DNA from: Deltaproteobacteria bacterium
GTDB taxonomy: Bacteria > Desulfobacterota > GWC2-55-46
DNA length: 64,000 nt
Direction: 5' to 3'
Assembly (NCBI GenBank): GCA_016234405.1
Contig: JACRCC010000048.1
Span: 28,968-92,967, forward strand
Shown here in pieces: positions 3,473 to 52,254 of this stretch. How positions within the stretch are numbered: the first letter of the stretch is position 1; each line of letters begins with the position of its first letter. Under the pieces are notes generated by a model. That model did not search any database. It saw only the letters and a list, made by a program, of their open reading frames with translations, and had not been told where the DNA came from. Both the position numbers and the translations under genes were made by a program.

Positions 3473-3562
3473 TGTCATTCTGAGCACATTCGCAACGCTT
3501 CAGTGTAAACTCCGCGAATAAAACGAAAAGCAGATTCTTCGCTTCGCTCTGTTAGAATGACA
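3473..3562. repeat. structured ~90-nt intergenic repeat element, family 1 (copy A), MITE/REP-like with terminal inverted repeats tgtcattctgagc / gctctgttagaatgaca
   Basis: Shares tgtcattctga(g/a)cacattcgc…cagtgtaaactccgcgaa…gaaa…ttcttcgct with the copy at 30767-30860. Confidence 0.6.
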
Positions 3563-6706: not shown

Positions 6707-7156
6707 TCAGGTATCCCGCGCCTTAACGACCTCGCGTATCGAGGTGAAGTATCCCCGCCTCCTCCTCACTAAATACTCCGCTACCGAAAATGCCCTCGCG
6801 TAAGGACGTCCCATATAACTCAGCTGCAGCTGGTCCAAGAGATGATGAAAGAGAAACCCCATCAGGACAAGATTGGCTTCGTCAAGATATAAGCCCGCGA
6901 CGTAGAGCACGGCGTAACACTCGAGCGTGTGAAATACGTTAAGACCTAAAAAGTTGTCGAGGTTATTTAAGAGCGTGTCGTGGTATTTGAAAAGGCCTCT
7001 TATGCTGACGCTTTTGGTATCGAGCCAGTACTCAATAAAATGGTCGAGGTCTATGGCAACCACCGCGGCGCCGAATATGAGGGCATTGAACCCGATAAAC
7101 GGATATAGCGCGGCCGCCCCTGCCGCAGCCTGCGCCGCGTGCGCCTCTGGTTTCAA
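6707..7156 (-). CDS. YdjM/DUF457-like membrane-bound putative hydrolase (paralog 2)
   Basis: Same DxDH / FKYHD / VFHTLE / GFLFHHLLD / RAFSVAEY motif set as 4646..5113. Stop overlaps the start of the upstream YfhO gene. Confidence 0.4.
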   Translation of the reverse strand: MKPEAHAAQAAAGAAALYPFIGFNALIFGAAVVAIDLDHFIEYWLDTKSVSIRGLFKYHDTLLNNLDNFLGLNVFHTLECYAVLYVAGLYLDEANLVLMGFLFHHLLDQLQLSYMGRPYARAFSVAEYLVRRRRGYFTSIREVVKARDT

Positions 7157-9612: not shown

Positions 9613-9615
9613 TAC

Positions 9616-10359
9616 TTAGCTCCCGGCGCAGCGCTTGACGATCCTCGAGACTAAAAAATCCGGTAAAAATCTCATTGTCTTGCTTATGAAGGCATTAAGA
9701 AACGGAAAGTCGAAGACGCCGTTTAAACCCGGCGACGCAAGACGCCTGACAATTTTTTGAGCGGCGCTTTTGTAATGGATTTTAAGAAGTCCTGTCCTTG
9801 ACTCGTCAGGCGACATTCCGCCTGGATTAACGGTTACAAAACGCACCTTCGACGGCGTCATCTGCAGTCTCATGCACTCAAACGTCATGCTGAGCGCGGC
9901 CTTACTGCCGCTGTAAGCTATTTTTTTGTTGTTTAATCCCCGATAAGATGAAAGCGATGATATGGCAACGAAAGTCCCTCCATCCCTCTCCACGAAGACC
10001 GGTAAAAAAAGGTCGAGCCACGCAACGGCCCCAAAGAGGTTTATCGCGTAGGTCTTCTTGAACACGTCATAAGAAAACGTCCCGTCAAGGTCGTTTTCCA
10101 TGACCCCGGCGTTTAATACCACAATATCCGGCACAAAACCCGCCTCCTTCATCTGCGCCCGCACGCGCTCGGCGTCGGCCATTACGGAGACATCGCAAAC
10201 GCTGAAACGGAAAGACCCGTTAGACGTTAAACGCCCATCATTGTCCCATGCCTCAATCTTCCTCCTCGCAACGCCCCAGACCTTATGCCGCTCCGTTAAA
10301 AACTCGTTTGTCAGCGCCCTTCCGAGACCCGACGATACGCCCGTTATAAACACGTTCAT
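9616..10359 (-). CDS. short-chain dehydrogenase/reductase (SDR)
   Basis: ITGVSSGLG (TGxxxGxG), NAG motif, catalytic YSGSK (YxxxK). 247 aa. Confidence 0.7.
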   Translation of the reverse strand: MNVFITGVSSGLGRALTNEFLTERHKVWGVARRKIEAWDNDGRLTSNGSFRFSVCDVSVMADAERVRAQMKEAGFVPDIVVLNAGVMENDLDGTFSYDVFKKTYAINLFGAVAWLDLFLPVFVERDGGTFVAISSLSSYRGLNNKKIAYSGSKAALSMTFECMRLQMTPSKVRFVTVNPGGMSPDESRTGLLKIHYKSAAQKIVRRLASPGLNGVFDFPFLNAFISKTMRFLPDFLVSRIVKRCAGS

Positions 10360-10373
10360 CCTTCACCATTCCT

Positions 10374-13340: not shown

Positions 13341-13347
13341 AATTTCT

Positions 13348-13896
13348 CTATTTCACCTCCCATTCAGCTATGGATGTGTGGTTTTTATCCGACACGGTCT
13401 TCAATATCCTCAGTCTGTAATGGGAATACTTATCCGTTTGTTTGAGCGAATACGTATTTTTAACGGCGTCCCACTTTTGTCCTTTTTTTTCTTCGATGGT
13501 CTTCCAATCGGCGTCAGAACTTGGAAGATTGTCGGAGGCTGCGCCCTCAAGGATAAAATCAACCGGCGCTTGAGTAGCTGTTATCTCGGAACGCCGCGTT
13601 ATGGCGTAACCGGAGGCCGCGAACGGTTTTGAGAATGACATCGAAATCCAGCCGTAGTCGCCGGCAGGGCCTCCTGAATGCCAGAACGTCTTGGCGTCAT
13701 TGTCGTAAAACTTCAAGGGGTTTAACGACTCCGAATATATGCTCTTTGCCCCCAACACGACGTCTCCAGACTTTTCGAATACCGGGGACTTTGTTTGAGT
13801 CTTGACGGAAGAGGCGGTTTCACTTGAATCGCATGACATGCAAACCGCCAAAATCAAAATTGAAATTGCCGCAGTGAACAGGTCTTTTTTCATCAC
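13348..13896 (-). CDS. secreted/lipoprotein with F5/8 type C (discoidin)-like domain
   Basis: Signal peptide with Cys (ILAVCMSC). …KTFWHSGGPAGDYGWISMSF…VDFILEGAASDNL…WKTI… matches the discoidin-domain pattern. Confidence 0.45.
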   Translation of the reverse strand: MMKKDLFTAAISILILAVCMSCDSSETASSVKTQTKSPVFEKSGDVVLGAKSIYSESLNPLKFYDNDAKTFWHSGGPAGDYGWISMSFSKPFAASGYAITRRSEITATQAPVDFILEGAASDNLPSSDADWKTIEEKKGQKWDAVKNTYSLKQTDKYSHYRLRILKTVSDKNHTSIAEWEVK

Positions 13897-13910
13897 ATCC
13901 CTCCTTGTGT

Positions 13911-15047
13911 TTAGATATGGAATACCTCTTGAAGCTGTCTTTTGACGATGTATACGAGCTGTCTTGCCGAAAGTCCGAGCAAGAGATTGTAGTCGTTATT
14001 ACTCAGATGCGGGCATGCCACGCATCTGTTGGTTTTTCTCACGTGTTCAATGGCCTTTGCAACGCCCACCTCCTTTAAGTTGAGCGCCTTGAATTCCTCG
14101 TTCAAGGGAAAACACGGATAGACATAACCGTTAGCCTCCACCACGAACTTCGACCGCCCGTAATAGCATCTGATAGGCTCGAAACCAACCGGAAGCTCTT
14201 GGGGGGTCGCATGGTGTTTTACGTTGTAATCGAATGGCCAGCTCATCGAGTAGTTAAGGCATCTGTCCGAGGTGAAGATGGGATAGCCCTGATTTTTGAA
14301 ATACAGTATCTTGGAGAGAGATTCCCTTATCTCCTCCTGACTCATCCCCATGTCAAGAGCCTTTTTCAGAGGCTTGTAAAGTATGCTGAAGTAGAGCTGG
14401 AACTTATGCTCCTTTGCAAGTTTTGCGAGGAATTCTATGTCGTGCATGGTGTTGCGCGTGAGCGTAGCCGATACGCGCAAACGAAATTTTTCTTTTGACG
14501 CAAGTTTGATGGCGTCTACGGCGGCCTTGAAAGACCCCGTACCCCTGTTGAGATCGTTGCCCGCTTCATTGCCGTCAAGGCTTATGCAGAGGCTGTCAAC
14601 GTTCCTGACCACGTCAAGATTTTGCGCCAACAAAATTCCGTTCGTGATGAAGCCGACGTAGATACCCTTCCTTTTGATGTAATCAACGATATAACCGACG
14701 TCCTTCCTGAGAAGCGTCTCCCCGCCGTGGACCACCATGTATCTCGTCCCTAAGGCGTAGAGATCGTCTATGACCTTGACGAGTTCCTCGGTCGTATAAT
14801 CCTTGTCGCGTCTATTGCCGTAGTCGCCGAAACAGTAATGGCAATCGAGATTGCACCTGTTGTTCACGACAAGCACGACGGAAATCGGCTCGCTCTTCCC
14901 AAGGGCTTTATTGCGGACTATCCTATACGGGAATACGAGTCTCTGACGTATTGTAGACAGGGCCTTGTTCCAATGTTTTTTGTCAGTTTTCAGTTCTTTT
15001 GAAATCATACGCGGCCCCCTTGGACTTTGTGTTTTCAACGGAAACAT
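13911..15047 (-). CDS. radical SAM enzyme with C-terminal SPASM/twitch-like Cys-rich domain (peptide/protein-modifying maturase class; anSME-like). True start possibly at 15008
   Basis: CNLDCHYCF (CxxxCxxC) radical SAM cluster motif. C-terminal …CYYGRSKFVVEANGYVYPCFPL…NRCVACPHL fits auxiliary Fe-S (SPASM) cysteine patterns. Confidence 0.65.
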   Translation of the reverse strand: MFPLKTQSPRGPRMISKELKTDKKHWNKALSTIRQRLVFPYRIVRNKALGKSEPISVVLVVNNRCNLDCHYCFGDYGNRRDKDYTTEELVKVIDDLYALGTRYMVVHGGETLLRKDVGYIVDYIKRKGIYVGFITNGILLAQNLDVVRNVDSLCISLDGNEAGNDLNRGTGSFKAAVDAIKLASKEKFRLRVSATLTRNTMHDIEFLAKLAKEHKFQLYFSILYKPLKKALDMGMSQEEIRESLSKILYFKNQGYPIFTSDRCLNYSMSWPFDYNVKHHATPQELPVGFEPIRCYYGRSKFVVEANGYVYPCFPLNEEFKALNLKEVGVAKAIEHVRKTNRCVACPHLSNNDYNLLLGLSARQLVYIVKRQLQEVFHI

Positions 15048-15771
15048 TGTATAGACTGAGAAGTTCGGCTATCTCCTTTTCGGTAAGCGGGTTTGTCCAC
15101 ACGGCAACCTCGTCAATGCCCCCCCTGTAATATCTCGCGTCGCTGGAAGTGAATTTTCCGAAGGTCATCGGCGCGGGGTTGAATTTAAAGGTTTTGTAAT
15201 TTGCGGTCGCCCGCGACTTTCTGCCGTTCACGTAAGCGCTCATGCTTTTATTCTTTTTGTCTATGATGAGAATGACGTGAGACCATTTTTCGCGCGGCAC
15301 GTTGACAATTACGACGTTTCCGCTCGAATACCACGCAAACTTCTCCGCCTTCCTGTCGGTTGATTGGAATACCATGTTGCTTGCCTCGTCATGGTCCGTA
15401 TCGAAGACTATGCAGTTCGAATCCATTTCACACTCTTCGGGTTTCATCCACAATGAAACGGTAACCCCGGATTCAAAACTCGCGGTATTGACGAGGGTAT
15501 CTATATGCGAATCCCTGCCGTTGAAATGCGCGGCCTTTCCCGAAACCCCCTCAACCTGTTCCGTCCGGTACGTCCTCATGCTGTTTATCCCCTTGGAGTC
15601 GGTGAACAGGTCTCCCTGATTCGCATCCATGTCCCAATGCGCCAACGCCTTCGACAGGATATTTTTTTGTTCTTTCTTCGGTTGGCCGGTCTCTGCCGCA
15701 TAACATTGACCGGTCGAAAAAACAGAAACTGCCGCGAAAAGCACGGCGATAAAAAAACCTTTAACTTTCAT
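14983..15771 (-). CDS. secreted LamG-like (concanavalin-type jelly-roll) domain protein
   Basis: Signal peptide MKVKGFFIAVLFAAVSVFSTGQCYA. C-terminal GGIDEVAVWTNPLTEKEIAELL is the hallmark Laminin_G_3 motif. The 3' end overlaps the radical SAM gene start. Confidence 0.55.
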   Translation of the reverse strand: MKVKGFFIAVLFAAVSVFSTGQCYAAETGQPKKEQKNILSKALAHWDMDANQGDLFTDSKGINSMRTYRTEQVEGVSGKAAHFNGRDSHIDTLVNTASFESGVTVSLWMKPEECEMDSNCIVFDTDHDEASNMVFQSTDRKAEKFAWYSSGNVVIVNVPREKWSHVILIIDKKNKSMSAYVNGRKSRATANYKTFKFNPAPMTFGKFTSSDARYYRGGIDEVAVWTNPLTEKEIAELLSLYNVSVENTKSKGAAYDFKRTEN

Positions 15772-18700
15772 CTTTCTCCCTCCTTTCCGTCGTCTGTGCG
15801 GTCTGTCCGGTTATTACGTTTGTCATGAAGAAACAAGAACGCAGCGGCAAAAACACTCATTGAAAAAACCGAGTAAAAAACAGACAAGGCCGCTTTGAAG
15901 AGCGCAGGCTCAAAAACGAATGTTATCTCGTTTGTGCCCTTTATCAGCGGGATGGCCTTGAAATTGACGTTTGCCCTGTAGATACCGGTCTCTACCCCGT
16001 TTACATAAGCCTTCCATGATTTATCAAAACCGTCCGACCAATAAAGGAAACCGTCCTCGTCGGACACGGCAGTAATCCGGATAGAGTTGTAATCGTAGTC
16101 ATGCACCGTGTATCTGAATGGATTTTTTAGGGGGCCGCCGCTTGGGACAACCGCCGGCTGCCCCCCGCCGGCCTCTTGCGAGAGTATGACGGTATCCTCT
16201 AAAAATCTGACGCCTTCCTCTGGCGTCATTTTTGCGAAGAAATTCCGCAAGCCATCATCTCCAACCCTGCGCGCATGTCTCTTGAACTGGAACTGCGGCT
16301 CGCCTATCGCAAAGGTTTTTTCAATGACCTGATGAGGCGCCCCTGAGTGTATGAGTTTGTAATAATTGCTCGTCAAAAGAAAACTGCTCCATCTTTTCAT
16401 TCTCAAACCGTACTCAAATGTCTTTTCCCTGAGCGGTATGTATTGAATTGCCGCGTCTTTGAATATTGCATCAGACCTTGCCTCCGACTTCACGTTCAGG
16501 GTAAAAAAAACGGCATCAACGCCGCCATCAATGTGTTTTTCCACGGTCAGGGTTTCCCACTCGCCGGAATTGCCGTATGAAACGGTTTTAACCGGCAAGA
16601 CGCCGTCCTGAACGTCTATCTGGACGCCGCCCGGCGCCTGTGACATGCTCTTGGCCTTTACGGAAAACCAGACATACGCGTCCTTTACCGAACCGGATGA
16701 ACTTCTGAACTGAACGAGCGAATTACCCTCGGACGAAGGGCTGATACTCATGATGACTGAGCCGTCGGACATTTTTTTTTCTTTAAACTCTCCGCCGTCG
16801 CCGTCCTGGCTGTATGTTAAAGGCAGGTCGAAAAACTTCTTAGACGCCGACGTTTTAACCAGCGTAATTTTCTTGCCGGTGTAGTCTATCGGTTCATCGG
16901 GCATGACCGTTGAAAGGGCATCCGCCTTGCGATGCAGTACCGACAGATACCTCATTGACTGTTCCCCTTGCAACTGAGACGGCTCAATGTAAACCGACCG
17001 CTGCCAAAACCAATCAGGTCTTTGCGGCGTGGTTCGCACCTTGTAGGCGCCGCCGGGGTGTTTTGCGGACTCATAAAGAAATGATGTCTTTCTCAGGCTG
17101 AACGTGAGGTCGAGGAGCAGGCATATATAAAATATGACAAGCGCGAGGGCAAAAAAATATCCGTTAAAGAGACCTTTAGAGGACGATCTTTTGTTGATAA
17201 TTTTCAATATCAAAAAAACCGTAATAGGGATGAGGAGCGATACCGCCATGTACTTCAGGAATTTATGGGCGTTGTTTGAAAAGACTAAAACGGCTGCGAC
17301 GTGCAGGACAACCGCTCCCGCGTAAAGCCGCTTGGAGCCGATCGTTTTCCACAACAGCAGAAAAGTCAGAATACCCAAAGGAATAAAGACGGATAGATAC
17401 TCGCTTACAAATTTAGCGAGTTCCTTCACGGCCGTATATCCGAACATCATGTATGCAGCGGCCCCTAACGCTAAGACTACGACGGCGGAGGGCGCCGCAT
17501 ATTTCTTGAGGTCAACTTCGGTTTTACCGGGAAAGATATCCGTTTCCCATGTCTTGAAAAGGTGATTGAGCCCGATTACATAAAAGAAAAGAAGGGAGAA
17601 TATGAAGAAAAGCACGAAGGTGTGCGTGTGCCTCACGAACCACATCGGAGGATAGACGTAATAAAGCGCCTTGTGCAGACCGCCTGCGGGCCCGAGCATA
17701 AGAAGCGCGGTCGCGGCAAGGACAAATAACCATACTCGCTTGAGTTCATGAGTCCCTGCTATGACGCCGATGAGGGAAATCGCCCACGGCAGAAAACCGA
17801 GATACATGTAGGCCTCTGACGGTTTCCCCCACAAACTCCGATTAGGCCACCGTATGTGGTCATTTCCGTCAGGCGCTATCAGCTGTATGAAGTCGCTGAT
17901 ATGAGAAAACGTCCCGGTGTGAGCAATGAGTTTATAGGGCATGATTATGCCGGAAACCGGCAACGAAGACGGCCCTGACTCATACTGGACAGGGCCTCCG
18001 AGAGGCGGCTTATTTTCATACGCGTCATCCACCATCCGCGCAGGAAAGACGAATTTGCCCTTTTCGGCGAACAAAACGACGTCGGGCGCGGCCATCATGA
18101 CGACTATCAATAAGGCTGCGCCTGCCCTAAGAACCGATGGCCGCGTATTCCGGAAGTCCCGCAAAAGGTCAATCCTAAAGATGCAAACCCCGGCAACGAA
18201 AAAAAGGGAAAAAATCCATGCCCCCGTAAAGAAGTACGACTGCCAGTTGAGACCGGTCACCGCGCCGAGCATAAGATAGTTGTGCCAACTGTGGTCTTTC
18301 TCCCAGATGATGTTGAGGAAGAAGTATGTGATGTACGGGACCCAGATGAACTGGTTGAGTATCGCATCCTGCCTAAAAGAACCTAGCATAAAAGAGGAAA
18401 AAAGGAGTATGGGGATGATGCTCGCGCGCGTAAAGACGTTTAGCGCAAAACGTCTCAACACGATATGAACGCCAAACGCCGTTACAAGCAGCTCGATAAA
18501 CCTATTCCAGTTAAAGAGCATAACGATGTCGTTTGTCACAAACCTGCCGAGCAAAATCGTCAGCCATGCGGCCGGCTCATAAAACCTTAACTGTGCGAGC
18601 GCCGGATAGAAAGGCTCGCCGCCGTGACTGAACGGATTCCAGTAAGGCAGCCTCAAACTCATGAGGTTTTCGGCAAAAAATTGATATATCGGGTAATTCC

Positions 18701-18872
18701 AGTAGAGGTTGTCGTGGATGAGGGTTGTCTCTCCGGTGATGAGCATCTTCCTTAGCGTATAGACGAGAAAGAGGGTCGAGACCGCCGCCGCGCACAACTC
18801 TATTGTGAGCGTATGCCTGTCAAATATCTTGCTGAGTTTATTGCCGGAATCCATCATGGGTGATTTTGGCAA
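15768..18872 (-). CDS. YfhO-family membrane protein, paralog 3, with CBM4/9-like insert
   Basis: 1034 aa; HDNLYWNYPIYQFFAENL…PYWNPFSHGGEPFY N-terminal signature and GFDKSWKAYVNGVE C-terminal signature. Internal SPSSEGNSLVQF…VQIDVQDG is homologous to the paralog-2 insert. Confidence 0.5.
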   Translation of the reverse strand: MPKSPMMDSGNKLSKIFDRHTLTIELCAAAVSTLFLVYTLRKMLITGETTLIHDNLYWNYPIYQFFAENLMSLRLPYWNPFSHGGEPFYPALAQLRFYEPAAWLTILLGRFVTNDIVMLFNWNRFIELLVTAFGVHIVLRRFALNVFTRASIIPILLFSSFMLGSFRQDAILNQFIWVPYITYFFLNIIWEKDHSWHNYLMLGAVTGLNWQSYFFTGAWIFSLFFVAGVCIFRIDLLRDFRNTRPSVLRAGAALLIVVMMAAPDVVLFAEKGKFVFPARMVDDAYENKPPLGGPVQYESGPSSLPVSGIIMPYKLIAHTGTFSHISDFIQLIAPDGNDHIRWPNRSLWGKPSEAYMYLGFLPWAISLIGVIAGTHELKRVWLFVLAATALLMLGPAGGLHKALYYVYPPMWFVRHTHTFVLFFIFSLLFFYVIGLNHLFKTWETDIFPGKTEVDLKKYAAPSAVVVLALGAAAYMMFGYTAVKELAKFVSEYLSVFIPLGILTFLLLWKTIGSKRLYAGAVVLHVAAVLVFSNNAHKFLKYMAVSLLIPITVFLILKIINKRSSSKGLFNGYFFALALVIFYICLLLDLTFSLRKTSFLYESAKHPGGAYKVRTTPQRPDWFWQRSVYIEPSQLQGEQSMRYLSVLHRKADALSTVMPDEPIDYTGKKITLVKTSASKKFFDLPLTYSQDGDGGEFKEKKMSDGSVIMSISPSSEGNSLVQFRSSSGSVKDAYVWFSVKAKSMSQAPGGVQIDVQDGVLPVKTVSYGNSGEWETLTVEKHIDGGVDAVFFTLNVKSEARSDAIFKDAAIQYIPLREKTFEYGLRMKRWSSFLLTSNYYKLIHSGAPHQVIEKTFAIGEPQFQFKRHARRVGDDGLRNFFAKMTPEEGVRFLEDTVILSQEAGGGQPAVVPSGGPLKNPFRYTVHDYDYNSIRITAVSDEDGFLYWSDGFDKSWKAYVNGVETGIYRANVNFKAIPLIKGTNEITFVFEPALFKAALSVFYSVFSMSVFAAAFLFLHDKRNNRTDRTDDGKEGER

Positions 18873-24415: not shown

Positions 24416-25552
24416 TTACTTCCCTGAAACATTAACCCGCGCCCCGTCAAAGAGGGTCGAGAGGTTGGATATCGCCACGGTCTCGCCGGGCGCTATATTG
24501 CCGAGCACCTCAAGCATGCCCTCGGACTTCATGCCGATGTTGACCCTGCGCTCCCGCGCAAGACCGTCTGCGATGACAAATATCTTATTTACGCCTACGA
24601 AGGAATACACTGCCCCCTCCGGCACGAACGGCACGCCTGACTCTTTTTTCGTGATGATGACGCCCTTTGCGAAAAACCCGGGTTTGAGCGCCCTGTCGCG
24701 GTTCGGTATAACCGCCTCCACCTCGAGCGTGCGCGTCTCGGCGTCAATTGCAGGCGAGATGCGTTTTAACGCGCCCTCGAATACGCGGCCGGCAAAGGCG
24801 TCAACCGTTATGCGCACGGTTTGACCGGCCGCTATATCGGACACCGAGGTCCCTGCGATTGCCGCGCGGAATTTGAGTCTTCCGGTGGACACGACCGTAA
24901 ACATCGCGGACTTGTCCCTGACCGCCTCGCCCACCGAGACGAAACGCTTTTTTATCTCCCCGTCAATCGGCGCGGTTATCACCGTGTCGGAAAGGCGCTT
25001 CTTGAAGAGATTGAGCCTTGCCGCCGACTGCCCGACACGGCCCTCGGCCTCCTTATACTGGGCCTCGGTAACGGCATAGAGGGTCTTTATCGAATCGAAC
25101 TGGCTCTGAGAGACCATTGCGTTCTTATAGAGGTCCTCGTATCGCTTGAGATTCGTCCTTGCGTCCGTAACGCGGGCCTTTTCTTTTTCAAGGGTCTTGA
25201 TGTTCGTGAGGTGAGACGCCGAAGCGTCGGCGAGATTGAGCTTCGCCTCCCTCTGGTCGAGGGTGGCAAGCGTTACGCCGGTCTTTACCGTGTCTCCGAG
25301 ATCCGCTGCGATTGTCGCCACGGCGCCCGGGGCCTCGCTGCTCACGATGACCTCTTCCCACGGCGCCAAGGCGCCGGTGGCCTCGACGCTCCTCTCCACG
25401 GCGCGGCCCTCGACAACGCCCGTCTTTACGGTTAATACCTGAGATGCCGTATTGGCCGTAGTGGAATCCTTTGAACATCCAAGAAGGGCAATGCCCCAGA
25501 CAACTACGGCTATAAGAAGGTATACGGCCGGCCTAAGCGTCTTCATATTCAT
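24416..25552 (-). CDS. RND efflux membrane fusion protein (periplasmic adaptor, HlyD/AcrA family)
   Basis: Signal/anchor, then coiled-coil, lipoyl and beta-barrel segments. Stop/start overlap with the TolC-like gene. Confidence 0.75.
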   Translation of the reverse strand: MNMKTLRPAVYLLIAVVVWGIALLGCSKDSTTANTASQVLTVKTGVVEGRAVERSVEATGALAPWEEVIVSSEAPGAVATIAADLGDTVKTGVTLATLDQREAKLNLADASASHLTNIKTLEKEKARVTDARTNLKRYEDLYKNAMVSQSQFDSIKTLYAVTEAQYKEAEGRVGQSAARLNLFKKRLSDTVITAPIDGEIKKRFVSVGEAVRDKSAMFTVVSTGRLKFRAAIAGTSVSDIAAGQTVRITVDAFAGRVFEGALKRISPAIDAETRTLEVEAVIPNRDRALKPGFFAKGVIITKKESGVPFVPEGAVYSFVGVNKIFVIADGLARERRVNIGMKSEGMLEVLGNIAPGETVAISNLSTLFDGARVNVSGK

Positions 25553-26910
25553 TTTTGACCCTCAAGGGGTTTAACGTCTTTCAACTCCAAAAGCAGGACG
25601 CCCGCAGCTGCGCGGAGTTCGAGTCTGGCAGCCGCAAGATCATACGTGGAATTCATCAAAGACCTCTGCGCCGAGATAAGCGTCGCGTCCGCGTCAATCA
25701 CGTCAACGGTCGTCGCAAGCCCGAATTTAAATTGTTCAAAAACCATATTGTAATCTTCCTCCGCTAAAGAGAGCTGCTTTCTATACGCCTCGAGCGCCGC
25801 CTTTACCGATTCTAAACCGTTGAACGCCGCCCTTACTTGAAGCTCGATGTCGCGCTTGAGGAGAAGCCTTCTCAGTTCAGATTCCCTTAACTTGCTCTTG
25901 GCTTCCGACAACTCCGCATAGCGCAGCCCGCCTTCGAATATCGGGACGCTCAGGATTATTGAGCCGGATACGCTCTCCTTCTGATAAAAGGTCGTCCGGG
26001 GGTTCTGCTCCCTCCACGAATAGATGCCCTCGAGCCTCAAGGATGGAAGGAAAAAACCCTTTGCGTAACTGACCCCCTCGGAGGCGGCCCGCTCGTCGAG
26101 CGCGCCCTGCTTGTAATCAAGCCTGTAGGCGTAAGCGAGTTTTAAAATCTCGTTTACGTCGTTACTCAAATCCTGTTTGACGGGAGGTTCGGACACCTTT
26201 ACATCGTCATTTACATTGGTGAGTCTTTTAAGGACGTCCGCCGTATTTTTTAGGTCGCTGCGCGCCTTTATAAGCTCGGCCTCGGCTCCGGCCACGAGCG
26301 CGTCGGCGCGGAGAACCGCGCTCTTCGTAACCTCTCCTACCCGAAGGCGCGCTGAGGCAACCTTGCTGCGCTCCCCTGCCCTTTTAAGCGCGGCCTCTTT
26401 TATCTCAACCTCTTTTTCCGCCTTGAGTACTCCGTAGTATGCGCGGCCTACGGCCCTTATGACGTTCTCCATCGCCCAATCAAGCCCTGCCGCGTTTCTT
26501 TCGCTGATTATGCCGGCTTGGCGCTTTGCGGCCCACTCGCGTCCGCCCGTATAGACCGGCTGGGTAAGCCTTACGTCCACCCTCGATGCGTCGTCCGGCT
26601 GGATAACGAAGCCGCCTGATTTTTTCTGCTCGCTGTATACCGTGTATCCGCCCTCGGCCGTCAATTTGGGAAGAAGCTGAGAGACGGCCTTGTCTACTCC
26701 GCTCTCGGCCTGATTTATCCCCTCCCTCGCCATACCTACGGCCTCGTGGCTCTCGACGGCGAGTCTATAGGATTCGGAAAGCGTGAGGCTCCGTGAAGGG
26801 GGTAATTCCCCCTCACCTGCCGCCGCAAGTCCAGCAACGGGAGACACGAGGAATAATAACGCCGAGAGAAAAATAAAATACTTTATCGGAAGCGGCCGCT
26901 GCATACGCAT
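25549..26910 (-). CDS. TolC-like outer membrane efflux protein (OMF). Start taken at MRMQRPL (26910) rather than the track's 26985
   Basis: Signal peptide MRMQRPLPIKYFIFLSALLFLVSPVAGLA and two repeated alpha/beta halves typical of OMF. A GAGGAG RBS lies upstream of 26910. Confidence 0.65.
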   Translation of the reverse strand: MRMQRPLPIKYFIFLSALLFLVSPVAGLAAAGEGELPPSRSLTLSESYRLAVESHEAVGMAREGINQAESGVDKAVSQLLPKLTAEGGYTVYSEQKKSGGFVIQPDDASRVDVRLTQPVYTGGREWAAKRQAGIISERNAAGLDWAMENVIRAVGRAYYGVLKAEKEVEIKEAALKRAGERSKVASARLRVGEVTKSAVLRADALVAGAEAELIKARSDLKNTADVLKRLTNVNDDVKVSEPPVKQDLSNDVNEILKLAYAYRLDYKQGALDERAASEGVSYAKGFFLPSLRLEGIYSWREQNPRTTFYQKESVSGSIILSVPIFEGGLRYAELSEAKSKLRESELRRLLLKRDIELQVRAAFNGLESVKAALEAYRKQLSLAEEDYNMVFEQFKFGLATTVDVIDADATLISAQRSLMNSTYDLAAARLELRAAAGVLLLELKDVKPLEGQK

Positions 26911-26912
26911 AC

Positions 26913-27662
26913 CTATCTCCTCATCGCCCCCACCCTGCCTTCCCCCAGAGCCGCCTTCCGTCGCCGAGGCCGTGCAGGATAACAAGGCTGATGCCGGAAA
27001 GCGGCGCCGGGGGAGGGATAAGTGGAATGCGGAATCATCATACCGTCGAAAAATATGTTAACGAACGTATCAACGACCTTTTTATTTGGCCTCTTAAAAT
27101 ACGCCTTGAGACCGTAGAGTTCCTGAGAGACGCTGTAATGCACGGTCATACCGGTGAACGCCCTTGCCGCAAGCGCCGGGTCAACGCGCTTGAAGACGCC
27201 TGTTTTTACGAGTTTAATAATTTCTTTTTGGAGAAACGCGAGGAGTTCCAGCGCCTTTGTCCTGATGAAAATCTTTGAGAGGTCTTGCCTTTCAAGGGCG
27301 CTGTAGGTGAGTAACCGGAGGAATGTGTCGTCTTTCTGGTGCTCCGTGATTATGTGCGACGCGACGGTGGAAAAGATGTCTTTGCCCTTCTTGCCGTCAA
27401 GCCTCTTTATCAGGGTCGCCTCTCCCCTCTTGTCGCCGCACTGCATATCAATAATAGCCCTGTAGAGGTCTGCTTTCTTCTTGAAGTGCCGGAATATGAC
27501 CGCCTCGCTTATGCCGGCCTTTGAGGCTATCTCGCGCGTAGTGGCGCCCTTAAACCCGTTTCGCGCGAAAAGGGACATGGCGACCTTGACTATCTGGTCT
27601 TTCCTGTCGGCTGCCGCAAGCCGTTTTTTAACCGTTTTTTTTCCTTTGGGTTTGCCAACCAT
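26913..27662 (-). CDS. TetR-family transcriptional regulator with an unusual ~40-aa C-terminal extension
   Basis: N-terminal HTH TREIASKAGISEAVIFRHFKKKADLY. At 249 aa it is longer than typical TetR. The tail is encoded across repeat family 2 copy R1. Confidence 0.7.
   Translation of the reverse strand: MVGKPKGKKTVKKRLAAADRKDQIVKVAMSLFARNGFKGATTREIASKAGISEAVIFRHFKKKADLYRAIIDMQCGDKRGEATLIKRLDGKKGKDIFSTVASHIITEHQKDDTFLRLLTYSALERQDLSKIFIRTKALELLAFLQKEIIKLVKTGVFKRVDPALAARAFTGMTVHYSVSQELYGLKAYFKRPNKKVVDTFVNIFFDGMMIPHSTYPSPGAAFRHQPCYPARPRRRKAALGEGRVGAMRR
26943..27011. repeat. ~68-nt stem-loop repeat, family 2 (copy R1)
   Basis: Arms cccagagccgccttccg / cggaaagcggcgccggg flank a loop containing cgccgaggc.g.gcaggataa.aa. 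The loop core is about 80% identical by eye to copy R2 at 33123-33190. Confidence 0.55.
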
Positions 27663-30766: not shown

Positions 30767-30860
30767 TGTCATTCTGAACACATTCGCGGAGTTTACACTG
30801 AAGTGTTGCGAATGTGCTCAGTGTAAACTCCGCGAACGGGGCGAAATCCGCTTCTTGCTC
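30767..30860. repeat. intergenic repeat element family 1 (copy B), containing an 18-nt perfect inverted repeat ttcgcggagtttacactg / cagtgtaaactccgcgaa
   Basis: Shares its 5' end tgtcattctga(a)cacattcgc and its core cagtgtaaactccgcgaa…gaaa…cgcttcttgct with copy A. Looks like a head-to-head internal duplication of the core. Confidence 0.6.
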
Positions 30861-31743: not shown

Positions 31744-32070
31744 TCAATGCACCCTGCCCTTTACGTCCGTCCCTTCGAATGCGGCCATGCCGCCCTTGAG
31801 CGGGTCGTCGGCAAACCTGTCCCTGCATCTCTTGCACAGGATATATATGAAGTCCTTTACGACGTCCTCTTCGAGCGCCTTGGCGTCCATATCCTCCATT
31901 GCCGAGAGCAGCTCGTTTATGTCGTGGTCCACGTTATCGCCGTAATCCTCCAAATAGCCGTCGAAATCCGCGAAGGTGCGTATCTCGACTATATACTTTA
32001 GGCTGCCCTTGGGAAGTTCCCTGCCGCAACCGTTACACCTGAGTTTGTGCATCGTTAATAATCCTTTCAT
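31744..32070 (-). CDS. small zinc-ribbon protein (two CxxC pairs) with acidic middle region; function unknown
   Basis: CNGCGREL … CKRCRDRF. 108 aa, or 101 aa if it starts at MHKL. Confidence 0.35.
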   Translation of the reverse strand: MKGLLTMHKLRCNGCGRELPKGSLKYIVEIRTFADFDGYLEDYGDNVDHDINELLSAMEDMDAKALEEDVVKDFIYILCKRCRDRFADDPLKGGMAAFEGTDVKGRVH

Positions 32071-32224
32071 AAGGCCGAATGCGGCGCACTGCTTTAAGCG
32101 GGCATGTTTGTCCGCGCAGCCAACCCTGCTTGTAAAAATCTCCGCGGTATATGCGGAGATTTTTTATCTTAACCCTAAACATGCCCCTTGTCAAATCAAA
32201 TGGGTCTGTGTTAAATTCTATCGG

Positions 32225-33109
32225 ATGCCGGAGATAAATACCATACTTTCACGCGATTCTTACCTCCTTTACGCGGAGTTGAGGCTGTTTTGGCTCGTCG
32301 CGTTCGTCTATGGGATGTCTTTTGCGCTTTTCATAATACACGGCGCAACGCGCCAATCCGCCCCCGGAAAGATAGGCCGGATGCTGCTGTGGCTCGCGGT
32401 ATCCCTGCATATAGCCCTCATTGTGCTCCGCACGTTAGAGGCTGGCAGGGCGCCGTTTCAGACGCTCTATGAAAGCCTTTCGTGGTTTGCCTGCTCGGCT
32501 GCCCTCACATATCTCTATGTCTCCGGAAAATGGGAGGATATCCACCTGCCCGGGGGTATCGTGTCGGGAATATCCCTTGGCGCGTGCCTCTATGCGCTCC
32601 TCGCGCGCTCCCCTGCGGTTGAGCCTCTCGCCCCCGCGCTTCAGAGTTATTGGTTCGAATGGCACGTGGCGCTCGCGTTTTTCTCCTACGCCGTCTTTGT
32701 GGTAAGCGCGTCAATCGAGGCAATCTGCCTTATAGTGATGCCTTTCGTAAAAAGAGGCCGCCGCGTCTACGGCCTGACGATAAACGCCGTTGATGAACTG
32801 CAAACGCTCGCGCACAAACTCGTTCTTTTGGGGTTTCCGCTCCTTACCTTCGCCGTGCTCTCCGGCGCGGCGTGGGCAAACGAGGCATGGGGCAGGTACT
32901 GGAGCTGGGACCCGAAAGAGACATGGTCTTTGATAACGTGGACGGTCTTCGCCGTCTACCTCCACTCCAAGACCATACCGGCCATGAAGGGGCTTCCGGC
33001 GTCGGTCTTTAATTTAATCGGGTTCGTCTGCATGATGATGACGTTCCTCGGCGTGAACTGGCTTGCAAAGCTCCTCGGCATCCCGTCCCTGCATGTCTAC
33101 GCCGTGTAA
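32225..33109 (+). CDS. ccsA: cytochrome c-type biogenesis protein CcsA/ResC (system II heme handling; WWD domain). Start moved to MPEINT (32225); track ORF begins 31976
   Basis: WGRYWSWDPKETWSLITW is the CcsA/ResC WWD signature. Polytopic with conserved His residues. Confidence 0.75.
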   Translation: MPEINTILSRDSYLLYAELRLFWLVAFVYGMSFALFIIHGATRQSAPGKIGRMLLWLAVSLHIALIVLRTLEAGRAPFQTLYESLSWFACSAALTYLYVSGKWEDIHLPGGIVSGISLGACLYALLARSPAVEPLAPALQSYWFEWHVALAFFSYAVFVVSASIEAICLIVMPFVKRGRRVYGLTINAVDELQTLAHKLVLLGFPLLTFAVLSGAAWANEAWGRYWSWDPKETWSLITWTVFAVYLHSKTIPAMKGLPASVFNLIGFVCMMMTFLGVNWLAKLLGIPSLHVYAV

Positions 33110-33122
33110 CCTAACGACCGTG

Positions 33123-33190
33123 CCCAGCGCCACTTTTTGCCGCCGAGGCAGCGCAGGATAATAATGATGGTGCGGAAAAGCGGCGCTGGG
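33123..33190. repeat. ~68-nt stem-loop repeat, family 2 (copy R2), between ccsA and resB
   Basis: Arms cccagcgccacttttt / aaaagcggcgctggg. The loop cgccgaggcagcgcaggataataatgatggtgcgg is homologous to R1. Confidence 0.55.
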
Positions 33191-33244
33191 CGTGAACCGT
33201 GACCGTTAAGGCGGAAATTTTACTAACGCCAACATATCCCAAAT

Positions 33245-34744
33245 ATGACATACGACCGGAAAAACATCCTTGCCCTGACTTCAATAATGGCCGCCTTTCA
33301 AAAGGCTAAAGACCTCAAGGTCTTGAGATGGGTCTACCGGAGGCTCGCCTCCATCACCACCTCGGTCTACGTCCTCCTTGCCACGGCCTTTTTGTATCTC
33401 ATAGGCACGATATTTCCGCAGGGCGGCAACTACTCCGAATACGCAAAGACCGGGGGCAGGTTCGTTTGGGCCGTGGATGCCTTTGAACTGCTCGATTTTT
33501 TCACCTCTCCGCTCTTCCTCGTTTGCGCCTTCATACTTTTGGCTAACCTCGTCGTGTGCGCGTATGACCGGTATCCGATGATTTTTTCAAAAGGCCCATA
33601 TCCGGCGGAATTCAAACCCACGCACACGTTCTTTCTCACGCACGACATAGCAGACGCCCACGGCGAGGTAAGGGGGATTTTACGGGCAGATCTCGGATTT
33701 AAACTCATCAGCAAAGACGGTTCGTGGATAGTGATGGAACGGGGACTTCCGTACAAACTCCTTACGTGGCTCTATCACCTCGGCATAATCGCGCTCTTTT
33801 TGGGCTTTATTCTAACTTATCTCTTTGCCTTTGAAGACAAACTTACGCTCTGGCCGGGCAAGAGCAACTCCGTGGCGCCTTCGGTTACCGGACGGGTCCA
33901 ATATCTCTTAGGGATGAAGCCTTCGAGGGGCGACTGGGTGTTAATCCTCGACGAATTTATGACGGAATACCACCGGTCCCCGAAACTCGACTACCCTAAG
34001 GACAAATTCTCCCGCCTTGCAACGGGGCTTGGCTGGAACCCGCCGGCCTATATTCTCGAAGGCGAAACGCTATTCCCCAAGGACTGGAAGTCGGCCGTGA
34101 GGGTCATGCAGGGGATACGGATGCTCGACCAAAAGGTTATCGAGGTGAACGACCCCATGAAGTTCGGCGGCTACACGTTCTATCAGGAGGGGTTCGAGCA
34201 GAGGTTGAGCGTCAGGATTGACTCCAACCCCATCCCGCTCATAGTCAAGACAAACGAGGACGTCTATATCCCCGGCCTCGACCACGCCATAAGGTTCGAC
34301 ACCCTGAGAAACGGCAAACTCTTTAAGTTGAACGGCGAGACCGAAGAGATAAAACCATACACGGAAATCAAGGCCGCCGCAAAGGACGTCTCAGGAAAAT
34401 ACGAAGACGCGGGCGCGATAGCGGCCGGAGGGTCGATCCAGATGGGGGGCAAGAGGATAACCCTGTCGGACTTCGAGGAAGGCGCGGTCATCAGCTACCG
34501 TTACGACCCCGGTGTGCCGCTTTTGTGGGCAAGCGGCATATTCGTGCTCGCAGCCATGACGCTGCGCCTCTGGGGTTCTTGGCATATTCTCGCGTACCGG
34601 ATTGACGATAACGACGGCATGGTATTCCTCGACATATACGTCGCCTCAAAAGGGCTGCTCGCGGACGCCGAAAAGCTCGTAAAAAGACTCGAATACCACC
34701 TGACAAGATACGACCTCAAACCGGCCCAGATGCCTCCGGCGTAG
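33245..34744 (+). CDS. ccsB: cytochrome c biogenesis protein ResB/CcsB (Ccs1) family
   Basis: N-terminal TM with LIGTIFPQGG (ResB signature). Large periplasmic domain and C-terminal TM. Adjacent to ccsA. Confidence 0.65.
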   Translation: MTYDRKNILALTSIMAAFQKAKDLKVLRWVYRRLASITTSVYVLLATAFLYLIGTIFPQGGNYSEYAKTGGRFVWAVDAFELLDFFTSPLFLVCAFILLANLVVCAYDRYPMIFSKGPYPAEFKPTHTFFLTHDIADAHGEVRGILRADLGFKLISKDGSWIVMERGLPYKLLTWLYHLGIIALFLGFILTYLFAFEDKLTLWPGKSNSVAPSVTGRVQYLLGMKPSRGDWVLILDEFMTEYHRSPKLDYPKDKFSRLATGLGWNPPAYILEGETLFPKDWKSAVRVMQGIRMLDQKVIEVNDPMKFGGYTFYQEGFEQRLSVRIDSNPIPLIVKTNEDVYIPGLDHAIRFDTLRNGKLFKLNGETEEIKPYTEIKAAAKDVSGKYEDAGAIAAGGSIQMGGKRITLSDFEEGAVISYRYDPGVPLLWASGIFVLAAMTLRLWGSWHILAYRIDDNDGMVFLDIYVASKGLLADAEKLVKRLEYHLTRYDLKPAQMPPA

Positions 34745-49448: not shown

Positions 49449-50555
49449 TCAAACAAGCCCTTCAAAGACCTTTAGCGTTTCTTGCGCCGTCTTCTCCCAC
49501 GAAAACCCCTTTGCGCGCTCAATGCCCTTGAGTCTCAAACCCTCTGCAAGGGTGGTGTCGTCAAGGAGTTTATCCAAGGCATGAGCGATGCCATCAACGT
49601 CCTTTGGGTCAACAAGCATGGCCGCGTCACCGGCGACCTCGGGCATGGAAGAAACGTTGGAGGTTATGACCGGGCAACCGCAGGCAAAGGCCTCAACTAT
49701 GGGAAGACCGAATCCTTCATGCAAAGACGGAAACATCAGCGCGGAGGCCGAGGCAAGCAGCCTCGGCATGTCCTCTATCGGGATATATCCGAGCAGGACT
49801 ACGTCTCTAACAAGACCGAGCCTTCTGATTTCGCCAACCACCTCATCGTAGGCCATACCTTTTTTACCTGTTATGACCAACATAAAATCCTTGCGGAATT
49901 TGCTGCGGCCATACGCCTGTATAATGCGCGGTATGTTTTTTCTGTACCAGAGGAGGGACGACGTATTTATCACAAACGGCCTGTCGAGCGAGTATTTTTT
50001 TTTGACCGCGTCCTTTTCATCGTTGCCGTATATCTTATAGAGCAACTTATCGTAACCGAGCGGGGTTACGATTACTTTATCCGGTTCGACCCCTGCAATC
50101 TCCACGACGCTTTTTTTCGTGGCCTCCGATATGGCAAGTATCTTATCCGCTCTCTTAAAAGCGCTCTTTATGGCTATTAGGAAGTGCAGCTTGGCGGTAA
50201 GGGTGACCGGGCTGCCGAAATAGTCCTTTAACGCATGAAGGTCATAGGCCGTCAAGACCTTTTTCCCGCCCACGAAAAACGGAAGTTTTTCGTGCGGCAC
50301 GAAGACTACGTCGTGGGGGTCATTTAGAAGCTCACGGGTAAAGGCGAGATACGTCATCCAGAACCGAGGCGGCCCCAAAACCTTTTCGTGAAAATTCTTA
50401 GCGGCCACCCTGTGCCTGAACTCGTGGCTCGAATAAAGGTCGTAGGTGTTCTTCGGGTCTATGGCGGCAAGCGCCCTGAGGAGGTTATAGGTATAATACC
50501 CCATGCCGTTAAGACGCTCTTCGCTCATCATCTTTGCGTGGACCGCTATCCTCAT
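49449..50555 (-). CDS. glycosyltransferase family 4 (GT-B, retaining)
   Basis: C-terminal FPSLHEGFGLPIVEAFACGCPVITSNVSSMPEVAGD (EX7E-type motif). Confidence 0.75.
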   Translation of the reverse strand: MRIAVHAKMMSEERLNGMGYYTYNLLRALAAIDPKNTYDLYSSHEFRHRVAAKNFHEKVLGPPRFWMTYLAFTRELLNDPHDVVFVPHEKLPFFVGGKKVLTAYDLHALKDYFGSPVTLTAKLHFLIAIKSAFKRADKILAISEATKKSVVEIAGVEPDKVIVTPLGYDKLLYKIYGNDEKDAVKKKYSLDRPFVINTSSLLWYRKNIPRIIQAYGRSKFRKDFMLVITGKKGMAYDEVVGEIRRLGLVRDVVLLGYIPIEDMPRLLASASALMFPSLHEGFGLPIVEAFACGCPVITSNVSSMPEVAGDAAMLVDPKDVDGIAHALDKLLDDTTLAEGLRLKGIERAKGFSWEKTAQETLKVFEGLV

Positions 50556-51358
50556 TTTTCAATACCAGCGAGCACGTATAGCCCCCTGCCGCACAAGGGC
50601 AGAGACTCGACGACGGGCTTCAAGGCCGAGGCCAGAGCCGGGATCACGCCCTTGTGCATTGAGCGCGACTTCAAAAAACCCTCGATGTCCGGCCTCTTCT
50701 CGGCGTATCTTATCACCTTGAAGCCGTTAAGGCCCAAAAAGCGGGTTACGCTATTTATGTTCCACCTCGTCAGATGGTGCGGCGGGCCGTCCTCTGTATC
50801 GAATCGGGCCATAGTTCTGCCGCGGTTCGGGACGCTAAGGGCAATGCAGCCTCCGGGATTTAGCAACGTCCTTACCTGACGGATAAAACCAACCGGGTCT
50901 TCGAGATGTTCGAGCACCTCGAAAAACGTGACAAAGTCGAAACCCATGCCTTTAAATGTATCGGCGGCATCGAAGACAGACGCGCAAAAGACGTTTTCGA
51001 GGCCGAACCGTTTCTTTGCCACGACGATTTTTTCCGCCACGAAGTCCACTCCGTAGACGTCGCAACCGGCTTTTTTTACTTCGACCAAAAATTCCCCGAC
51101 GCCGCAGCCGATGTCGAGGAGCGTCTTTCCGACCAGATTTTTTTCTTCAAGGAACTGCCTGTGGTGCCACGAAATCTCGAAGTTCCATGTCCAGTAATCA
51201 ACGTTAGACTCCGCATCCCTGTAGAGCGCCGGGTCCGCGCCCTTCATCGGTTCGGAAAAAACAAGACCGCACGCGAGACAGAGAAATTGTTTATACTGAG
51301 TCCCCGGCTTCTTTAAAGGCCTAACGTTCACAGCGCCGCATGAAACACAAGTGCTCAT
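50552..51358 (-). CDS. SAM-dependent methyltransferase with N-terminal zinc-ribbon (paralog a)
   Basis: CVSCG…CLACG zinc ribbon; LLDIGCGVGEF motif I; Methyltransf_11/23-like core. Confidence 0.6.
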   Translation of the reverse strand: MSTCVSCGAVNVRPLKKPGTQYKQFLCLACGLVFSEPMKGADPALYRDAESNVDYWTWNFEISWHHRQFLEEKNLVGKTLLDIGCGVGEFLVEVKKAGCDVYGVDFVAEKIVVAKKRFGLENVFCASVFDAADTFKGMGFDFVTFFEVLEHLEDPVGFIRQVRTLLNPGGCIALSVPNRGRTMARFDTEDGPPHHLTRWNINSVTRFLGLNGFKVIRYAEKRPDIEGFLKSRSMHKGVIPALASALKPVVESLPLCGRGLYVLAGIEK

Positions 51359-52254
51359 GAATTAAACCTTGCCGTGCAGACCATGCCTGCGGCCTTCAAG
51401 TTGAAAACCCTCAGCAACATGCCCGGTGGATACGTGAGCGCGCCGAATATCGCGTCTTTTATCCTCATAAGACGCCGCGCCTTTTCTATTGCCGCCCCGT
51501 CATCGGCGTCAAGCCCCTCTTTAACGAGGTTGTGGGCTATCCTCAATCTGAGCTTGCCCTTGAGGTAGATGTTCAAGTCTTCATGGTCGAGCGGCTTTTC
51601 AATCAGGCTTATAACCGTAAAGCCCATGCGCTCCAGAAAAGATTTAAGCGACGCGGCGTTCCATTTCGTGAGATGGTTCGGGGGCGCGTCGCCTTCACCG
51701 AGGGTGTCGAGCGCCCGTTCTCTATTTGGAACCGAAAGGGCGATTACGCCTCTATCCGAGAGCAGCCCTTTGATGTCCTCCAAAAATTGTTCAGGGGCGT
51801 CGAGATGTTCGAGCACCTCGAAAAAAGTGACTATATCGAAGGAGTTTTTGCCGAGGGTTTTCAACGCGGCCTCGACGCTCATACAAAAGACGTTTTCGAG
51901 CTTGTATCTCTCCTTTGCTATCGCAATATTGCGCGCATCGAAGTCCAACCCCCATGCGTCATAACCCGTTTTTTTTGCCTCGCTTATGAATACCCCGTTC
52001 CCGCAGCCTATATCAAGAAGCCTCTTGCCCGGAAGCCTCATCTTGAGGACTTGCCTATGATGCCACTCTATGTCCTTTGTGATTACGCGCCCGACGCTGT
52101 AGACCTCCGAAGACTCGTACCATCCCGCGCCCGGGGCTTTGAAGGGGTCGGCATAGACCACGTCGCACGCGCCGCACCTGTACATCGTATAATCGCCGGA
52201 AAGACCGAGTCTTTCATCGGCGTTAGCGGAGCTGCATACGGGACATGCCTTCAT
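51355..52254 (-). CDS. SAM-dependent methyltransferase with N-terminal zinc-ribbon (paralog b; start taken at MKACPV)
   Basis: CPVCSS…CGACD zinc ribbon; LLDIGCGNGVF. Shares FFEVLEHL, ALSVPNR and HHLTKWN with paralog a. Confidence 0.6.
   Translation of the reverse strand: MKACPVCSSANADERLGLSGDYTMYRCGACDVVYADPFKAPGAGWYESSEVYSVGRVITKDIEWHHRQVLKMRLPGKRLLDIGCGNGVFISEAKKTGYDAWGLDFDARNIAIAKERYKLENVFCMSVEAALKTLGKNSFDIVTFFEVLEHLDAPEQFLEDIKGLLSDRGVIALSVPNRERALDTLGEGDAPPNHLTKWNAASLKSFLERMGFTVISLIEKPLDHEDLNIYLKGKLRLRIAHNLVKEGLDADDGAAIEKARRLMRIKDAIFGALTYPPGMLLRVFNLKAAGMVCTARFNS

Follow-up and report, generated by a model that had tools for sequence, protein, structure and literature searches.

Palindromic insertion elements of a probable REP/REPIN/MITE-like family at two operon junctions of an uncultured deltaproteobacterium

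The 64-kb window (the whole stretch of DNA that was analysed) belongs to an uncultured deltaproteobacterium and contains two related hairpins, termed R1 and R2, which are recent insertions in two different operons. With a probability of roughly 80%, they are copies of a non-coding, non-autonomous palindromic insertion element of about 68-70 nt that represents a new REP/REPIN/MITE-like family. This reading is based on the conserved inverted ends, a spacer that is free to vary but stays foldable, the existence of filled and empty sites and the unrelated contexts of the copies, which favour very short spacers at gene ends and can nest inside another hairpin. The element is of an ordinary kind rather than a dedicated regulatory RNA, and the family is previously undescribed.

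Two related hairpins in the window

R2 occupies positions 33119-33194 of the + strand including its flanks, with the hairpin at 33122-33191, and has the layout GCCCAGCGCCACTTTTTG-[loop]-GAAAAGCGGCGCTGGGC. Its 5' arm CCCAGCGCCACTTTT (33123-33137) and 3' arm AAAAGCGGCGCTGGG (33176-33190) enclose a spacer or loop at 33138-33175, and the tetranucleotide CGTG directly adjoins the element on both sides (33119-33122 and 33191-33194). R1 is located at 26940-27015 (+ strand; hairpin 26942-27013) and has the layout CCCCCAGAGCCGCCTTCCG-[loop]-CGGAAAGCGGCGCCGGGGG with the arms CCCAGAGCCGCCTTC at 26944-26958 and GAAAGCGGCGCCGGG at 26997-27011; its hairpin is lengthened outwards by the stem of an older host insert. 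Both copies have the same DNA orientation while their host operons are on opposite strands. The two stem-loops had been described in an earlier note on this DNA as members of a repeat family with about 80% identity over about 50 nt by eye. Both were found at those positions, and the analysis supports a genuine family whose hairpin is conserved. Pairwise alignment yielded 82.6% identity over a 46-nt core and approximately 76% over the full length of about 70 nt. The alignment contains no meaningful gaps, length and register are equal and the core CGCCGAGGC.G.GCAGGATAA is kept at 19 of 21 positions.

As the arms are GC-rich and the window holds two copies only, the resemblance could be that of any two GC-rich hairpins, which the similarity search makes next to impossible. 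Smith-Waterman comparison of R2 with all 100-nt tiles on both strands of the window identified R1 as the best match by far: it scored 61, while the background averaged 14 (sd 2.4, maximum 30; z approximately 19.5). Chance is thus refuted by this score, by covariation in the stem and by the recovery of further members with a covariance model. The core pattern with up to three mismatches was found at three window sites against 0.1 expected. The third site (56162) is a chance match within coding sequence and has neither hairpin nor arms.

Both copies are predicted to fold stably, with RNA folding energies of -38 and -47 kcal/mol for the + strand and -40 and -51 kcal/mol for the - strand (z-scores of -2.6 to -4.3) and DNA folding energies of -23.5 and -20.1 kcal/mol. 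The stem differences between R1 and R2 keep the pairing (TT/AA to CC/GG and T.G to G-C). Covariation, proposed earlier as a check, was analysed in an alignment of five family members with a 20-bp stem, in which 89% of the stem cells are paired and six pairs have changed on both sides; pairing dropped to 42-52% when the partners were slid by one to three columns. The covariance model obtained from this alignment scored R2 at 81.2 bits and R1 at 78.5 bits, the next best window match reached 12.5 bits, and a scan of the 64-kb window with filters off did not detect any copy beyond these two.

R2 separates ccsA and resB

The gene upstream of R2 is a ccsA-type cytochrome c assembly gene (31976-33109, + strand; Pfam Cytochrom_C_asm), and the one downstream is a resB-type cytochrome c biogenesis gene (33245-34744, + strand; Pfam ResB), whose product is identical to NCBI protein MBI5970608.1. 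The ccsA stop codon is 13 nt upstream of the R2 stem and the resB start is 54 nt downstream of R2. One Logan contig (L127, SRR12113407) carries a ccsA-resB site identical to that of the window, R2 included. Among the three nearest relatives, two do not contain R2 in this spacer: in L129 (83% ResB identity) and L130 (85%) about 17 nt lead from the ccsA stop to the resB start, and the site is empty. The third relative, L128 (JGI 3300010391; 86% ResB identity), has an unrelated hairpin, CCCCCCC-TTTAAGAAA-GGGGGG, between the two genes. The spacer measures 135 nt in the window versus about 17 nt at the empty sites. The 5' region of resB also seems to be remodelled in the window and L128 lineages (33195-33244 versus L128 3760-3840), with extra sequence separating the element from the resB start and, in L128, a second, partial occurrence of the ancestral GCCGAAATGTCC start region. 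More than one event seems to have shaped this spacer.

R2 had been suggested to act as a processing or attenuation site of a ccsA-resB unit. In a more general form, a cis-regulatory RNA hairpin would have been selected to set the ccsA:resB (and tetR:tolC) ratio by processing, attenuation or stabilisation. A very stable hairpin within polycistronic units, compensatory changes that conserve its stem and a start 13 nt past the ccsA stop would agree with such a role, and E. coli REPs so near to a stop codon are reported to influence both translation and the decay of the mRNA. Nevertheless, the nearest relatives do not have the element at either junction, and other members reside in non-operonic places (between divergent or convergent genes and in tandem) as well as in a ribosomal protein intergenic region. 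Because R1 and R2 have one and the same DNA orientation but their operons are on opposite strands, the loops would be reverse complementary in the mRNAs and the loop core cannot be a common RNA signal; the opposite senses leave only a generic stem in common. There is no T-run, and no terminator-like site was detected within 250 nt of R1 or R2 on either strand, which excludes an intrinsic terminator. No Rfam 15 family reached its gathering threshold at R1 or R2 (one tRNA is the only feature of the window that passes), and the sub-threshold matches are generic miRNA hairpins that score no more than 27 bits where 70-100 would be required. A dedicated regulatory purpose is therefore unlikely, given the absence from relatives and the opposite senses, and the processing or attenuation proposal is unsupported as a primary explanation.

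It is even less probable, to the point of being hardly credible, that the element is an independent small RNA gene or carries an outward-facing promoter. A weak sigma-70-like sequence (TTGCCG-17-AATAAT, 33137-33165, + strand) within R2 points to resB, but its hexamers are not conserved in R1 or other members, and neither a terminator nor an Rfam family accompanies the proposed small RNA.

R1 is nested in a composite insert at the tetR-tolC junction

R1 resides in an operon on the opposite strand to that of R2, with the order ApbE - TetR (27662-26913) - OEP/TolC - MFP - RND. The tetR-family regulator gene (26913-27662, - strand) encodes 249 amino acids with a Pfam TetR_N domain and a TetR_C_7 domain that ends near residue 205, and is followed by the gene for a TolC-like outer-membrane efflux protein (25549-26910, - strand; Pfam OEP). 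About 120 TetR homologues, compared as had been proposed, do not have the C-terminal tail; they are 197-255 amino acids long and cover just 76-86% of the window protein. The closest of them end in ...FFDGMMRR, whereas the window TetR reads ...FFDGMM-[38 residues]-RR. These residues are encoded by a composite insertion of 114 nt (38 codons) that lies in frame at the 3' end of tetR (26921-27034, - strand) and was delimited by alignment with L005 and L001 and by comparison of the TetR proteins.

The relative L005 (TetR 86% identical, same ApbE-TetR-OEP synteny) reads ATGATGA|GGAGGTAG at this locus with the OEP start 3 nt on, and the 114-nt block of the window is located at exactly this empty-site point. 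It is flanked by a 5-nt direct repeat, TCATC on the + strand (26921-26925 and 27035-27039; GATGA on the - strand), is a multiple of three and contains no stop codon. The composite consists of an older C-rich hairpin with outer flanks TTCCGCATTCCACTTATCCCTCCCCC ... GGGGGAAGGCAGGGTGGGGGCGATGA (- strand) and R1 in its loop. This nesting was deduced from L001 (GCA_040961595.1; TetR 85% identical), which carries an insert at the same point with the outer flanks TTCCGCATTCCACTWATCCCTCCCCC ... GGGGGAAGGGCAGGGTGGGGGCGATGA in common and a different interior, a CCCTCCCCC-TTTAC-GGGGGAGGG hairpin. The earlier explanation of the aberrant TetR tail by read-through of the element is consequently correct in that tetR does read through R1, but R1 accounts for the inner approximately 70 of the 114 nt and not for the whole tail. 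Searches with six-frame peptides of R1 and R2 against 5.8 billion proteins returned the TetR of the window only.

An overlap of the element with the 5' end of tolC had also been reported, which stems from a mechanical open reading frame that begins at TTG 26985 within R1. The true start is ATG 26910, 2 nt past the tetR stop, and a signal-peptide-like sequence, MRMQRPLPIKYFIF, begins at residue 26 of the mechanical frame. The Shine-Dalgarno sequence GGAG is contained in the last tetR codons, and the insertion left both GGAG and the stop/start junction intact.

The proximity of one copy to a tetR gene raises the question of a palindromic protein-binding site, such as the operator of the adjacent TetR or of another dimeric DNA-binding protein. 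In accordance with this, the 15-nt arms are far more conserved than the spacer across contigs of 37-57% GC. However, the spacing between the arms ranges from 0 to 44 nt and does not fit a dimer site of fixed geometry. R1 is found at the 3' end of tetR and not at a promoter, orthologous loci do not contain it and the other copies have no neighbour gene in common, so that a binding site is a very improbable alternative to an insertion element.

C-rich-arm/G-rich-arm hairpins constitute a third hairpin family, with the forms CCCTCCCCC-loop-GGGGGAGGG or CCCCCCC-TTTAAGAAA-GGGGGG. They were observed in L001 (10640-10740) and L128 (3717-3800) and fill the tetR/tolC and ccsA/resB junctions in sister lineages; the parts present in the window are 26926-26946 and 27009-27034. 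No compact copy of the pattern CCCTCCCCC...GGGGGARGG, derived from the outer C-rich hairpin, was found in the window. The two junctions look like recurrent targets of palindromic inserts.

Insertion after the split from the nearest relatives

The examination of related genomes, which the earlier note had suggested, revealed that both sites are without the element in the nearest relatives of the window lineage, with protein identities of 83-86%. Judged from these orthologous sites, R1 and R2 were both shown to have inserted after the split from the nearest sequenced relatives. Both landed at tight gene junctions within operons, R2 past the ccsA stop and R1 before the last tetR codons. The insertion polymorphism comprises empty sites in L005 (tetR-tolC) and in L129 and L130 (ccsA-resB), and reciprocally the window is empty at the position of a copy in L128. 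The covariance model did not detect any copy in approximately 52 kb of L001, L005, L129 and L130.

This third copy, at yet another site in a sister lineage, emerged as a weak full-length match when a profile of R1 and R2 was used. It is flanked by genes for a metallophosphoesterase and a 108-amino-acid protein. L128 is related to the window by its Metallophos protein, which falls in the same 90% cluster, and by its 86% identical ResB. The arms of its copy, CCAAGCGCCACTTTTG ... AAAATGGGCGCTGGGC, agree with the consensus in 14/15 and 13/15 positions and are spaced by 44 nt as in R2, while the spacer is far more diverged. The orthologous spacer in the window lacks this copy.

Further members of the family in metagenomes

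A scan of metagenomes for the arms (AGCGCCACTTTT-N38-50-GGCGCTGGG) returned 13 loci. Nine of these are chance matches without arm complementarity and four (L132, L134, L135 and L142) are true hairpins that also match at positions not required by the search, as is expected of independent family members and not of chance likeness. The members in L132 and L134 have a perfect 19-bp stem and are located 3' of a ParE toxin gene. In L135, two tandem units are built on a perfect 36-nt palindrome, CCCAGCGCCACTTTTGCGCGCAAAAGTGGCGCTGGG, between divergent genes, and the L142 member is found between convergent genes. The covariance model also recovers the L135 tandem and, in the rplQ/rplM intergenic region of the same contig (5034-5077), a degenerate copy outside the training set with 26.8 bits. 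Altogether, two members were counted in the 64-kb window, one in 6.6 kb of L128 and three sites in 9.9 kb of L135. The contigs with metagenome members have a GC content of 37-51%, versus 52-57% for the lineage of the window.

The arms CCCAGCGCCRCTTTT / AAAAGYGGCGCTGGG are common to all members, with the 15-nt consensus CCCAGCGCC(A/G)CTTTT ... AAAAG(T/C)GGCGCTGGG. The spacer between them is poorly conserved and measures 38-44 nt in the lineage of the window and 0-38 nt elsewhere. Some of the copies lie between direct repeats (CGTG for R2, TAAA in L135 and TCATC at the composite tetR insert), and none were found at the copies in L128, L132 and L142 or at the inner R1.

Some features of the surroundings of these members were recorded in addition. 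In L132 (21-1069), the family member follows about 120 nt downstream of the ParE-family toxin gene, which itself comes after a fragment of a tyrosine recombinase (Phage_integrase) gene; this neighbourhood resembles that of a mobile element, unlike the housekeeping context in the window. The sequence CCCTCCCC precedes the left arm in L132 (1180-1200) and L134, and the same C-rich motif adjoins R1 (27009-27020), which may be a coincidence or a preference for insertion next to or within C-rich hairpins.

The R1/R2 subfamily itself is rare in public data, as a strict 28-base pattern of core plus arm did not match in the JGI metagenomes. A scan of genome contigs with the loose, coding-like loop-core pattern GCCGAGGCNNNGCAGGATAA gave at least 120 matches, and among the matches listed were single occurrences in unrelated taxa, none of which extends past the pattern; this suggests that the loop core is not a widespread repeat. 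Three patterns searched in viral contigs gave one chance match (L126), BLAST of a plasmid collection with the 36-nt palindrome and R2 gave matches at chance level, and a literature search with the arm sequence retrieved irrelevant primer or shRNA matches only.

Other repeats and genes in the window

Several other features of the window were observed. A separate repeat family, presumably "family 1", is found at two intergenic sites (3476-3519 and 30770-30840): a 40-nt segment (CTGAGCACATTCGCAACGCTTCAGTGTAAACTCCGCGAAT, 3480-3519) recurs inverted at 30782-30821 with 98% complementarity, and the second site is a nested hairpin with perfect 19-nt arms at 30783-30801 and 30818-30836. Two direct repeats, one of 135 nt (49599-49733 and 62622-62756; 73% identity) and one of 47 nt (50895-50941 and 51794-51840; 87% identity), lie inside paralogous glycosyltransferase/methyltransferase genes and thus reflect gene paralogy rather than mobile repeats; these genes belong to a polysaccharide or glycosylation cluster at approximately 46-63.5 kb. 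An unusual and poorly annotated cluster at 7153-18872 encodes three membrane proteins of very large size (819, 988 and 1034 amino acids) with a C-terminal YfhO-like match only, interleaved with radical-SAM, B12-binding and Laminin_G_3 genes.

Proposed mode of spread and consequences

The palindromic element may spread as a DNA hairpin that is moved in trans by an enzyme from another part of the genome; candidates are a RAYT-like Y1 transposase and an IS transposase with specificity for the arms. No transposase, RAYT or integrase was identified among the 46 scanned open reading frames of the window. A parent IS with matching inverted repeats was found neither in the window nor in the plasmid collection, and the arm motif as IS ends is not in excess in the window (16 matches versus 15 expected). 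The surviving copies would be those that spared the neighbouring genes, which would explain why the 114-nt tetR block is in frame and free of stop codons and why the ribosome-binding site and coupling of tolC were kept.

Effects on gene expression are possible as secondary consequences. The transcribed hairpin (-38 to -51 kcal/mol) may be a barrier to 3' exonucleases or a substrate of RNase III, and Correia and ERIC elements provide documented examples of RNase III and RNase E effects (PMC10969869). As the ccsA-resB spacer has grown from about 17 to 135 nt, coupling of the two genes may be lost, and TetR would acquire a 38-residue C-terminal insertion. A generic influence of the hairpin on mRNA stability or translational coupling is plausible as a side effect.

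A more speculative proposal, which we consider unlikely, is that the arm CCCAGCGCCRCTTTT forms the hairpin recognised by a transposase or nuclease system that is uncharacterised, specific for hairpins and able to spread horizontally. It would then belong to a new mobilisation system and not to one more REP family. This arm is unchanged in contigs of 37-57% GC, where it is combined with spacers of 0-44 nt. Such a system might favour the loops of existing hairpins and translationally coupled junctions, and the nested R1 as well as the unrelated palindromic inserts at both sites in sister lineages would fit a hairpin-targeting system.

With regard to annotation, the C-terminal "extension" of TetR and the TTG-extended tolC frame are artefacts or consequences of a repeat insertion and not new domains, and the great length of the ccsA-resB spacer does not mark a conserved regulatory region. 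The data document a new family of small palindromic repeats in an uncultured deltaproteobacterial lineage and provide clean comparisons of filled and empty sites, together with an insertion nested in an older hairpin. Two junctions that independently gained different palindromic inserts in sister lineages offer natural experiments on target choice and on the tolerance of operons to insertion.

Comparison with known systems

Some properties recall integron attC sites, which are imperfect palindromes of 57-141 nt located 3' of small genes (compare L132 with its ParE and tyrosine recombinase genes). The copies in the window, however, are located within ordinary housekeeping operons. They end in CCCAGCGCC/GGCGCTGGG and lack RYYYAAC ... 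GTTRRRY, and the window contains neither an integrase nor a cassette array, which rejects this assignment.

In-frame palindromic insertions within genes are known from the Rickettsia RPEs (PMC10969869). R1 is similar in that a palindromic repeat is inserted in frame and TetR gains 38 residues at its extreme C-terminus while the gene is not destroyed; this RPE-like insertion kept the ribosome-binding site of the downstream gene and the stop/start coupling. In contrast, RPEs are about 150 bp long and many are intragenic with a conserved encoded peptide, whereas one of the two copies described here is genic, there is no sequence similarity and the encoded peptide is present in no other of 5.8 billion proteins.

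MITEs such as Correia and ERIC elements (PMC10969869) share with the new family the terminal inverted repeats, the small non-coding nature, the location within operons and a co-transcribed hairpin. Inverted arms of 15 nt were found in all members, filled and empty orthologous sites exist, short direct repeats occur at some copies (CGTG, TAAA) and effects of RNase III or RNase E are possible. The flanking duplications are nevertheless inconsistent between copies, and a length of about 68 nt is at the small extreme of MITE sizes.

REP elements and REPINs occur in tens to hundreds of copies per genome, nearly all of them extragenic; two copies were seen here in 64 kb. REPIN families are described as vertically inherited and bound to a lineage, while the present arms recur across very different GC contents. 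Their cognate RAYT (a Y1 transposase) is encoded by a single-copy gene with the same REPs on its flanks, and none of the 46 scanned window frames encodes a RAYT. In REPs, each end is a small palindrome with a GTAG-like 5' head. The arms of the new family are not imperfect palindromes: there is no internal hairpin in the arm CCCAGCGCCACTTTT, and the bases on the 5' side of the arms vary from copy to copy, so that no GTAG-like head is conserved. Membership in REP/REPIN proper is thus not established. The likeness to REPINs (PMC3116915, PMC3337134) concerns the total length of about 70-90 nt, the extragenic location near gene ends and the lineage-specific presence. REPINs have conserved arms and a variable spacer that stays foldable (PMC3337134), and the same arrangement of inverted conserved ends around a less conserved, foldable spacer was found here. 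The perfect palindromes of L135 resemble in addition the long palindromic REP singlets that have been described as REPIN derivatives.
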